Below, piece by piece: positions 14,871-16,116 of a stretch of 64,000 nucleotides of DNA. This stretch comes from an uncultured Gemmatimonadaceae bacterium (GTDB lineage Bacteria; Gemmatimonadota; Gemmatimonadetes; Gemmatimonadales; Gemmatimonadaceae). The stretch covers positions 160,001-224,000 of the forward strand of contig CAWAGQ010000011.1 in the NCBI GenBank assembly GCA_963781585.1, read 5' to 3'. Position numbers and translations under genes: made by a program. The notes below the pieces were generated by a model that was given only the letters and a program-made list of their open reading frames with translations, was not told the origin of the DNA and searched no databases. Every line of letters starts with the position of its first letter. Position 1 is the first letter of the stretch.

Positions 14871-14942
14871 ACCGCGGAGGCCGCAGAGGACACAGAGGTC
14901 CGGCAGGCGGCGACAGCACGCCGGTGCAGCTCTCTGCGGCCT
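14871..14942. repeat. REP-like palindrome interrupted by the IS110 element (rest at 16086-16094)
   Basis: Left arm ACCGCGGAGGCCGCAGAG; the reconstituted right arm CTCTGCGGCCTCTGCGGT is its near-perfect reverse complement. Confidence 0.8.
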
Positions 14943-14949
14943 TGTATGT

Positions 14950-15125
14950 CTTCATTGAAGAGTGTTGGTTCGGGACGGCGGCAGCTCGATCATCGTGGCC
15001 GGGGCGTACAGAGCCCGTCGCAGAGTAGGAGCGCCGCCCCACCGATCGCTCGAAGCCCGAACAGCTACCTGGGTCGACGAGAACCCGCATCTTGCAAGGC
15101 AGGGCGCGCGCGATCCCAACGCGGA
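14950..15125 (+). ncRNA. IS110 bridge RNA (target- and donor-binding loops); ends approximate
   Basis: LTG TCGTGGCC 14993-15000, RTG CGCAGAG 15019-15025, LDG ACAGCTAC 15061-15068, RDG (TG)CAAG 15093-15098; each pair flanks an internal hairpin within a closing stem. Confidence 0.8.
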
Positions 15126-15134
15126 GTGCCACAG

Positions 15135-16070
15135 ATGTCCTACGTGGGGATTGATGTCAGTAAGGCGACCCTCGACGTCGCCGTGCATGCGGGGGCGACG
15201 CAGCAAGTGCCCAATGACCCCGCCGGCTGGGCGCGCCTCATCACGCACCTCCGGACCGTGGAGGCCGCGCTGGTCGTGCTCGAAGCCACCAGTGTCTACC
15301 ATCGGGGCGTGACCACGGCGCTCGTGACGGCGGGGATCCCGGTCGCGGTGGTGAACCCGCGCCAGGTGCGCGAGTTCGCGCGCAGCACGGGGCAGCTCGC
15401 CAAGACGGATCGCCTGGATGCCGCCGTGCTCGCCCGCTTCGCCGCCATGGTGCGCCCCACGCCCCGACCGATTCCAGACGACGCCACGCAGGCGCTGGCG
15501 GCGCTCCTGGAGCGCCGCCGCCAGCTCCTCGAGATGCTCGGCGCGGAACAGAACCGGCTCGCCGTGGCGCGGCCCGAGGTGCGCGCCAGTGTCCGGCAGG
15601 TCCTGCGCACGCTGGAGAAGGCGTTGGCGGCGACGGACGCTGACGTCGATCGCTGGATCCGGGAGAGTCCCGTGTGGCGGGCGGAGGAGGCGCTCTTGCG
15701 CAGTGTGCCGGGCGTGGGGCCGCAGACGGCGCGGTTGCTCATCGCCGCCCTCCCCGAGCTGGGGCGCCTAACGCGTCGCGAGATTGCGGCCTTGGTGGGC
15801 GTGGCCCCGCTCGCCTGCGATTCCGGCACGCTGCGCGGGCGCCGCCGCTGTTGGGGCGGACGCCGGCACGTGCGGGCCGTGCTGTACATGGCTGCGCTCA
15901 CGGCCAGTCGCTGCAATCCCGTGCTGCGGCCGTGGTATCGCCAGCTCCGCGCGGCGGGCAAGCCGGTGAAGGTCGCCCTGACGGCGTGTATGCGTCGGCT
16001 CCTCACGACCCTCAATGCCATGGTGAAAACGCAAGCGGCGTGGCGTCCGCCCGTCGCAATTGTTCCTTGA
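15135..16070 (+). CDS. IS110-family DEDD recombinase/transposase
   Basis: GGAG RBS; GIDVSK, LEATS, KTDRLDA (DEDD RuvC-like); SVPGVG, GVAP..DSG (catalytic Ser), GKP.KVA..A.MRRL. Confidence 0.96.
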
Positions 16071-16116
16071 CTTTTAACACAGCTACTCTGCGGTGAAAAA
16101 GATTGCGGTGAAGAAA

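Follow-up and report, generated by a model that had tools for sequence, protein, structure and literature searches.

An apparently intact IS110-group insertion sequence with an IS621-type bridge RNA in an uncultured Gemmatimonadaceae bacterium

Results

A short element between two convergent genes

We describe an element of 1,145 bp (counting one CT core) at positions 14943-16087 of a 64,000-nucleotide (nt) stretch of DNA from an uncultured Gemmatimonadaceae bacterium (GenBank assembly GCA_963781585.1, contig CAWAGQ010000011.1). The whole stretch is referred to as the window, and all positions are counted from its first letter. The element is intergenic, and the genes on either side, which encode a luciferase-like monooxygenase and an M14 peptidase, converge on it. 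Between two copies of a CT dinucleotide core it comprises a long left non-coding end, a single gene for a recombinase of 311 amino acids (aa), and a very short right non-coding end (Table 1); its span was set from the sequence together with the homology of its ends. It is very probably an apparently intact insertion sequence (IS) of the IS110 group that combines an IS621-type bridge RNA with a DEDD/Ser recombinase. The bridge RNA is about 140-150 nt long and is encoded in the left end.

Table 1. Features of the element and its surroundings, in window coordinates
Feature	Position	Strand	Basis or remark
Luciferase-like monooxygenase gene	13714-14850	+	upstream neighbour
Target-side palindrome, perfect 11-bp arms AGGCCGCAGAG (14878-88) and CTCTGCGGCCT (14932-42), 43 nt apart	14878-14942	+	repeat search
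Left target CTGCGGC	14934-40	+	sequence
CT core, left copy	14941-42	+	sequence; register set by the CT-TGTAT left-end starts in 66/79 loci
Left non-coding end, 192 nt, encodes bridge RNA	14943-15134	+	sequence, alignment of relatives
Right donor TGTAT, first bases of left end	14943-47	+	sequence
Candidate -10 hexamer TATGTC	14945-14950	+	17 nt past the -35 once right end joins left end
Bridge RNA core, target-binding then donor-binding module	14970-15107	+	covariance model R1
Target-loop closing stem, 5' strand: GGCGGC, bulged A14983, GCU	14977-14986	+	consensus projection; pairs with 15030-15038
Left target guide UCGUGGCC (DNA TCGTGGCC)	14993-15000	+	best ungapped match, same register as closest relative L001
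Target-loop inner hairpin: GGGC, 7-nt loop, GCCC	15002-15016	+	model; helix covaries in relatives
Right target guide CGCAGAG	15019-15025	+	reverse complement of CTCTGCG (16086-92), 7/7
Target-loop handshake UA	15026-15027	+	pairs with left-donor positions 7, 6 (A16085, T16084), not target C, G
Target-loop closing stem, 3' strand: AGC then GCCGCC	15030-15038	+	consensus projection
Donor-loop closing stem, 5' strand GCCC	15055-15058	+	model, projection; pairs with GGGC 15102-05
Left donor guide ACAGCUAC (DNA ACAGCTAC)	15061-15068	+	identical to ACAGCTA + core C (16079-86), 8/8
Donor-loop inner hairpin: GGGU, 8-nt loop, ACCC	15071-15086	+	model, projection
Right donor guide AUCUUGCAAG, discontiguous	15089-15098	+	IS621 pattern, relatives
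Donor-loop handshake GC	15099-15100	+	pairs with left-target positions 7, 6 (C14940, G14939), not donor A, T
Donor-loop closing stem, 3' strand GGGC	15102-15105	+	projection
Recombinase gene, 311 aa + stop	15135-16070	+	open reading frame, Pfam, NCBIfam, structure alignment
DEDD RuvC-like domain	residues 4-142 of recombinase		domain match
Tnp domain	residues 186-268 of recombinase		domain match
Candidate -35 hexamer TTGACT	16067-16072	+	overlaps stop codon, 15 nt before right core
Right non-coding end, 15 nt	16071-16085	+	sequence, relatives
Left donor ACAGCTA, last 7 nt of right end	16079-85	+	sequence
CT core, right copy (16086-87), and right target CTGCG (16088-92)	16086-16092	+	sequence, guide match
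M14-peptidase gene	16117-18861	-	downstream neighbour

The ends of the element are shared with its relatives

The left end opens CT-TGTATGTCTTC and the right end closes ACAGCTA-CT. Terminal inverted repeats are absent, the two ends (TGTATG... and ...ACAGCTA) being unrelated as inverted repeats. Relatives were collected by a profile search of genome contigs with an alignment of the protein, and 80 loci were kept (L001-L080; best identity 72%), among which the source genome does not figure; statistics on the ends were taken over the 79 loci that have a plus-strand match to the RNA. The left end begins CTTGTAT in 66 of these 79 loci. At the other side, TTGA[CT] lies exactly 15 nt before a right end closing ACNNNNN-CT, again in 66/79, although two of these right ends (L028 and L080) look spurious because their last 9 nt are unlike the donor guide. 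The right end is exactly 15 nt long in 54 of the 66 loci, and the median left end of the clade measures 194.5 nt.

In genomes with several copies (L001/L002, L005/L006, L045-L050, L049/L051/L056 and L077/L078), identity between the copies extends to the CT cores; beyond these they share only the few flanking bases that the guides read, and then diverge. At the start of its left end and at the close of its right end alike, the element in the window has the terminal bases of L001/L002, its closest relatives. An earlier reading of this DNA, made from the letters and their open reading frames (below, the original prediction), had proposed a complete IS110 bridge-recombination system bounded by CT cores at 14941-2 and 16086-7. 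These cores and the target and donor strings beside them all lie where it placed them, and its ends are correct, given the agreement with L001/L002. Its starting point of 14871 falls outside the element, in the flank, within the target-side hairpin.

In the IS110 group the left non-coding end is much longer than the right, an arrangement that is reversed in the IS1111 group (Durrant 2024, PMC11208160). With a left end of 192 nt against a right end of 15 nt, the element belongs to the former and not to the latter. Its GC fraction (0.704) is close to that of its flanks (0.67) and favours neither an intact nor a decayed copy.

The left end encodes a two-module RNA whose structure covaries

The left ends of 56 distinct elements were aligned, and the 55 from outside the window were trimmed to their conserved core and used to build a covariance model (R1) from which the window was left out. 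The RNAalifold consensus has two modules, in each of which a closing stem leads to a large internal loop around a small hairpin. This is the architecture of the IS621-type bridge RNA, supported here by covariation. The 24 pairs of this consensus, arranged in four helices, are formed in 95.3% of alignment cells (78.2% in shuffled alignments), with 194 cells changed on both sides (51.6 in shuffles) and a covariation score of 0.502 (0.175 in shuffles); on every measure, none of the 500 shuffles scored as high. When the partners were slid by 1-3 columns the paired share fell to 38-48%. Compensatory changes occur in 17 of the 24 pairs and, for the closing helix of the target loop, in 11 of 12 among the relatives.

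R1 matches the window at 14970-15107 over its full length (model positions 1-133 of 133) with 84.7 bits and an E-value of 3.2e-18. All 27 invariant columns of the 56-sequence alignment are retained there, and projecting the consensus onto the window yields 21 standard pairs out of 24. The original prediction had placed each pair of guides around a small hairpin inside a closing stem and had suggested scoring the left end against a covariance model; consensus fold, covariation, match to a model built without the window and projection all agree with it. Among the relatives, R1 scores 77.7-122.7 bits at 75 full-length plus-strand loci. Lower scores were obtained for L001/L002 (53.8), for the end-cut match in L003 (45.7), and for an additional minus-strand match in L029 (48.9).

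Two further matches to R1 in the window were set aside. One, at 6790-6888 on the minus strand (18.8 bits, E 0.005 under a rough calibration), lies inside a 927-aa open reading frame (6133-8916) and is probably noise; the other, at 51486-51607 (E 0.46), is regarded as noise as well.

A separate observation concerns Rfam. The best sub-threshold match of the left end was sX15 (RF02234), a small RNA (sRNA) of Xanthomonadaceae, at 14959-15120 on the minus strand, with 22 bits against a gathering threshold of 55 (E 0.57). The sX15 consensus in the printed alignment contains CAaCuGUUCggGC, which is the reverse complement of GCCCGAACAGTTG, a string conserved in the donor loop of the clade. For this reason sX15 may itself be an IS110-type bridge RNA that was annotated on the wrong strand.

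The guides match the flanks and ends of this copy

In the published descriptions of bridge RNAs, each loop has a 5' guide that reads like the top strand over the left half and the core, and a 3' guide that is complementary to this strand over the core and the right half (PMC11208160, PMC11208158). The right donor guide of IS621 pairs discontiguously, and the two bases that follow each 3' guide form a handshake, pairing after strand exchange with the other DNA and not with their own (Hiraizumi 2024, PMC11208158). The four guide segments and the two handshakes of the element agree with the flanks and ends of the very copy that encodes them, in the strand orientation of IS621 (Table 1). Both handshakes fit the non-cognate DNA and not the cognate one, as the IS621 model demands.

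The left donor guide is followed by a ninth base, C15069, that misses the core T, as it does in 70 of 79 relatives; the base is C in 56 of the 79. In the right donor guide, CAAG (15095-98) pairs with CTTG, G15094 faces T, and the AT of TGTAT is read by AU (15089-90), an arrangement like that of IS621 except for one more looped-out base. Its last four bases are complementary to the core and the next two bases in 70 of 72 loci. These matches are well above expectation: ACAGCTAC occurs four times in 128 kb (both strands) where 0.56 are expected, two of the occurrences being the guide and the right end, and the 9-mer CGCAGAGTA, expected 0.31 times, has two occurrences in the window, one inside the RNA and the other, reverse-complemented, at the right junction.

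The strings that the original prediction had singled out in the left end (ACAGCTAC at 15061-68, CGCAGAG at 15019-25, TCGTGGCC at 14993-15000 and TGCAAG at 15093-98) are all present at these positions. Its view that the guides can be read from the sequence holds in full for the right target guide (7/7) and the left donor guide (8/8), and in part for the left target guide, which is weighed in the Discussion. It had taken (TG)CAAG as the right donor guide; CAAG does pair with CTTG, but the guide is discontiguous and consists of AU (15089-90) and GCAAG (15094-98). The handshake dinucleotides, and the CTCTGCGG repeat that flanks the element, are additional to it.

Guides and insertion sites covary across the clade

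Taking one representative per distinct RNA, we compared the fit of each guide to its own site with its fit to the sites of other elements, with 10,000 permutations that reassigned sites between elements as the reference. Over its five non-core bases, the right target guide fitted 4.54 positions of its own site and 1.52 of the others (n=54). The corresponding means were 5.67 and 3.93 for the left target guide over 8 bases (n=57), 6.84 and 5.94 for the left donor guide over 7 (n=51), 1.22 and 0.98 for the target-loop handshake over 2 (n=51), and 1.11 and 0.86 for the donor-loop handshake over 2 (n=57). In none of the five tests did any of the 10,000 permutations reach the observed mean.

A right flank is available for 69 insertions; the right target guide fits it at 7/7 in 45 of them and at 6/7 in 17, with lower values in the remaining seven (L012, L015, L026, L028, L029, L069 and L080). 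Within the five closest relatives, guides reading CGCAGAG, CACAGAG, GTGAGAG and TCCCTAG each match their own flank, changes that are compensatory in the simple meaning of the word. The co-variation of guides with insertion sites across homologs was a check that the original prediction had asked for; together with the structural covariation and the independent model match at 84.7 bits, it bears out the assignment to IS621-type bridge RNAs.

Some relatives depart from this pattern. In one metagenome-assembled genome (MAG) of Dehalococcoidia, L026, L028 and L029 have right flanks that fit the right target guide at no more than 2-4 of 7 positions despite the same RNA, whereas the sister copies L027 and L032 fit at 6-7/7. 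The mismatch could come from recombination between copies that exchanged their flanks or from off-target insertion. L029 also contains a second bridge-RNA match (2155-2300, minus strand, 48.9 bits) about 500 nt upstream of the main element, which suggests a neighbouring or nested element. In Chloroflexia, the left ends of L068 (about 2735-2950), L071, L069 and perhaps L037 hold two target-loop-like modules in tandem, with differing guides, ahead of the donor loop. These left ends start with CT-AGTAT instead of CT-TGTAT and their right donor guide ends in CUAG instead of CAAG, a compensatory change.

The recombinase retains the catalytic residues of IS621

The protein encoded by the element matches PF01548 (DEDD_Tnp_IS110; E 8.5e-27, 94.3 bits against a cut-off of 29) and PF02371 (Transposase_20; E 2.8e-17, 63.3 bits against a cut-off of 21.3). 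It also exceeds the cut-off of the NCBIfam equivalog NF033542 (218.9 bits against 140), which would name it 'IS110 family RNA-guided transposase', in line with the IS110 assignment first made from the letters. Among solved structures it matches only ISCro4 (E 1.3e-35) and IS621 (E 9.3e-35), over residues 2-299. In a HMMER alignment to chain 8wt6_A, residues D7, E50, D92, D95 and S230 stand opposite D11, E60, D102, D105 and S241 of IS621, whose active-site residues are those listed in Hiraizumi 2024 (PMC11208158); the numbering of the chain is offset by 2, the aligned chain residues being 13, 62, 104, 107 and 243. These five residues are invariant in 32 homologs aligned at 64-100% identity, and every residue that is invariant across the 32 is retained in the window. 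Pfam, NF033542 and the residue alignment to IS621 thereby agree with the proposal that the recombinase keeps its DEDD and Ser motifs.

The open reading frame is of full length, is free of frameshifts and has 100% coverage against homologs of 311 aa. The original prediction had called the recombinase intact and compact. The former holds at the level of the sequence; as to the latter, 311 aa is not unusually small, since it lies within the published range of 300-460 aa (Durrant 2024, PMC11208160). The clade is abundant, with at least 8000 protein relatives at E<=1e-20 in the protein collection. The best non-self proteins are about 80% identical and come mostly from short metagenome contigs; one is labelled as coming from a Gemmatimonadaceae bacterium.

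A longer open frame of 639 aa (14151-16070) opens within the upstream gene, crosses the left end and continues in frame with the recombinase. We regard it as an artefact of GC-rich DNA and not as a fusion protein; homologs begin with MSYVGIDVS or MTYVGIDVS, which counts against the 639-aa start.

A candidate promoter split between the two ends

The two candidate promoter hexamers lie at opposite ends of the element (Table 1). TTGAC is found at the same exact distance from the right core in 44 of 52 distinct elements, including elements with a longer right end, in which the hexamer clears the stop codon. The -10 hexamer reads TATNTN across the clade (TATCTT in 23 and TATGTC in 6 of the 52). The formation of a promoter at the circle junction is part of the published model of IS110 elements (Durrant 2024, PMC11208160), and by analogy we infer that this element would have a promoter formed solely at its own circle junction.

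The element sits at the foot of a palindrome

The CT of the left core is formed by the last 2 nt of the right arm of the target-side palindrome. As DNA, the palindrome folds at -24.6 kcal/mol (z -2.54), and 2 of 200 shuffles did as well. The reconstructed target, CTCTGCGGC-CTCTGCGGT, carries the 9-mer CTCTGCGG(C/T) in tandem at the 3' foot of the palindrome. Since the target itself is a tandem 9-mer, the element is flanked by a direct repeat of 8 bp, CTCTGCGG, at 14932-39 and 16086-93. This word is common here (4 occurrences in the window against 5.18 expected). Because it stands on both sides, the crossover point is ambiguous from the letters of this locus, and it was settled by the relatives.

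A tandem repeat of 15 nt, TGCGGTGAAAAAGAT followed by TGCGGTGAAGAAATT, is present on the right side (16089-16118). It starts 2 nt past the core, overlaps the right target and reaches into the stop codon of the peptidase gene (16117-19). Right flanks opening with CTCTGTGGTGAA or CTCCGTGGTGA recur in the distant loci L003, L037 and L068.

Discussion

The evidence favours an IS110-group insertion sequence with its own bridge RNA: a left end whose structure covaries and matches a model made from other elements, guides that fit this copy and track insertion sites across the clade, and a recombinase with the domains and catalytic residues of IS621. That the element is intact is supported, as far as its sequence goes, by the full open reading frame, the catalytic residues and the 27/27 invariant columns of the RNA.

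Several results weigh against this reading. A single-sequence fold of the left end is uninformative (minimum free energy z -0.36; 65 of 200 shuffles did at least as well), so that the structural evidence consists of covariation only. No bridge-RNA family of Rfam 15 matched between 14700 and 16300 at E<=10. The three outermost pairs of the target stem in the model (14974-76 with 15039-41) are non-standard in the window. The left target guide compares with CTGCGGC and the core C at 5 Watson-Crick positions, 2 U:G wobbles and 1 C-A mismatch out of 8, and the next base, G15001, fails to match the core T. The -10 hexamer TATGTC agrees with just 3 of the 6 consensus bases, and a promoter scan of the integrated locus returned nothing promoter-like, a null result to be expected if the promoter exists in the circle only. 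No second copy was found in the 64-kb window, either with the 23-mer of the left end at <=3 mismatches or with tblastn (next best E 0.11). Neither a circle junction nor an empty allele was seen; the source genome is not among the 80 loci kept, and no search aimed at an empty allele was made in it. Finally, the permutation tests of guides against sites ignore the relatedness of the elements.

Part of this list would suit a copy of the same family that is dead or decaying, the remnant of an old or near-cognate insertion that excises or inserts inefficiently. The solitary copy, the imperfect left target guide, the three lost stem pairs and the weak -10 hexamer are what one might see in such a case, and so is the scarcity of cognate targets: the window holds no site within <=1 mismatch of the target that the guides specify, and its 22 sites at <=3 mismatches are at chance level (19.7 expected). 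We nevertheless consider a dead copy unlikely. Its gene is of full length and without frameshift, the five catalytic residues and all those invariant in 32 homologs are retained, as are all 27 invariant columns of the RNA, and the right target, left donor and two handshake guides show a perfect fit. The left target guide is also less of an anomaly than it seems. Over 70 natural insertions of the clade its score was 3 in 4 cases, 4 in 7, 5 in 19, 6 in 24, 7 in 11 and 8 in 5, so that the 5 of this copy is ordinary, being the second commonest value; the closest relative, L001, scores 7/8.

A quite different account takes the CTCTGCGG repeat on both sides as an 8-bp target-site duplication, which would move the boundaries to C14940-A16085 and make this a cut-and-paste element unlike IS110. 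We judge it very improbable. No relative duplicates anything beyond the CT core, and the left and right flanks of L001, L004, L005 and L008 are unrelated to each other; the word is common in the window; its left copy is an arm of a perfect palindrome older than the insertion; and the guides read the site in the register of the CT core. Hardly credible, lastly, is a left end that is merely the promoter and 5' untranslated region of the transposase gene with guide-like matches arising by chance, which would fit the unremarkable single-sequence fold and the lack of an Rfam match but is opposed by the covarying structure, the independent match at 84.7 bits, guides that covary with flanks across homologs (0/10,000 permutations as high) and exact 8- and 9-mer matches far above expectation.

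If the element works as IS621 does, excision would join its right end to its left end at the CT core and thereby place TTGACT 17 nt upstream of TATGTC, creating a promoter. RNA transcribed from this junction would bind recombinase dimers through each of its loops, the donor loop holding the circle junction ACAGCTA-CT-TGTAT and the target loop a site resembling CTGCGGC-CT-CTGCG. Ser230 would cut after the core, the top strands would swap with the assistance of the handshakes, and the resulting Holliday junction would be resolved. Excision of IS621 is described as weak and handshake-dependent (PMC13626964), and according to a preprint excision may need the donor half of the RNA only (10.64898/2026.08.31.748434); the two reports are relevant to the way in which this copy would leave its site.

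A stronger version of the IS110 reading is a tentative possibility: an active and naturally streamlined bridge system of a high-GC soil bacterium, with the junction of the tandem 9-mer at the foot of the hairpin as its natural target. Streamlining may be seen in the 311-aa recombinase, the 15-nt right end, a 5' stem-loop that is small or missing and a native right target guide of 7 nt, and the two fully 'post-exchange' handshake dinucleotides may belong to the same picture. In that case base pairing and DNA structure might jointly decide where it inserts, a combination put forward for ISPpu10 in a preprint (10.64898/2026.03.19.712850). A system of this kind would then be a candidate for orthogonal editing in hosts of high GC content.

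This class of mechanism is well known and its engineering is under way, and the element adds no new biology to it. Its practical value is that of an annotated ortholog in which every guide, handshake base and candidate junction-promoter element is placed to the base, together with 79 loci for comparison and a covariance model specific to the clade. A screen for orthogonal bridge recombinases could draw on orthologs of high-GC phyla whose native right target guides are long. For genome annotation, the element accounts for 1.15 kb of intergenic DNA between convergent genes and points to the 14878-14942 palindrome as an extragenic target that is probably repeated.

Comparison with known systems

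According to the original prediction, the system class is described but this member might not be. The second part holds in a trivial sense only: the retrieved relatives include no identical element, but the clade is abundant and already figures in the supplement of Durrant 2024. In the plasmid collection, where no record reaches 60% protein identity, the closest IS-named element belongs to the ISMno7 family (Methylobacterium nodulans plasmids), an IS110 transposase that aligns over 97% of its length but at just 50.7% identity. Judging from titles and the openings of abstracts, none of the papers returned by a literature search deals with IS110 elements in Gemmatimonads.

The nearest relatives form an unnamed IS110-group clade (L001-L080) found in MAGs of Gemmatimonadota, Chloroflexota, Nitrospirota and Acidobacteriota, with 47-72% protein identity and the same termini, 15-nt right end and RNA model. 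Closest among the loci kept are L001/L002, which come from a Gemmatimonadaceae MAG. They have the donor ACAGCTA-CT-TGTATGTCT in common with the present element and differ in the target, GTGAAC-CT-CTGTG, with a right target guide reading CACAGAG against CGCAGAG here. One row of the donor-RNA alignment in the Durrant 2024 supplement carries the hallmarks of the clade: a right end closing AAGACAGTTGCT, a left end opening TGTATCTT, and, further inside the left end, CCCGAACAGTTGCC and GACAAGG. The clade is thus not new to the literature, since its left ends are part of these covariation alignments (PMC11208160). The donor string ACAGCTACT occurs twice in the donor alignment of that supplement, which is only partly searchable, and neither occurrence is this element.

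The best match among solved structures is ISCro4/IS622 (PDB 9t56; E 1.3e-35), a distant enterobacterial homolog with the same motifs that has been engineered for human cells according to a preprint (10.1101/2025.05.14.653916).

Among the closest known systems is IS621 of E. coli, to which the recombinase is only distantly related (124 bits; 311 aa against 326 aa). Its right target guide comprises 7 nt against 4 nt in wild-type IS621, and some orthologues with a longer right target guide, 7 nt among the lengths noted, appear in the published accounts (PMC11208160, PMC11208158). Pairing of the left target and left donor guides includes the core C here but not the core T, an additional base of the right donor guide is left unpaired, just 15 nt make up the right end, and there is little room for an IS621-like 5' stem-loop because at most about 20 nt separate the predicted start of the RNA from the first module. 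As in IS621, the two domains follow each other in the same order, with catalytic D/E/D/D/S residues that can be aligned; the core is CT; the RNA is encoded in the left end, with the target loop ahead of the donor loop; and in each loop a 5' guide in top-strand sense is followed by a complementary 3' guide. The right donor guide is discontiguous and ends in GCAAG against CT-TGTAT, and each loop has a 2-nt handshake guide. Both elements, finally, have a -35 hexamer in the right end and a -10 hexamer in the left (candidates in the present element), and both are inserted into palindromic extragenic sequence.

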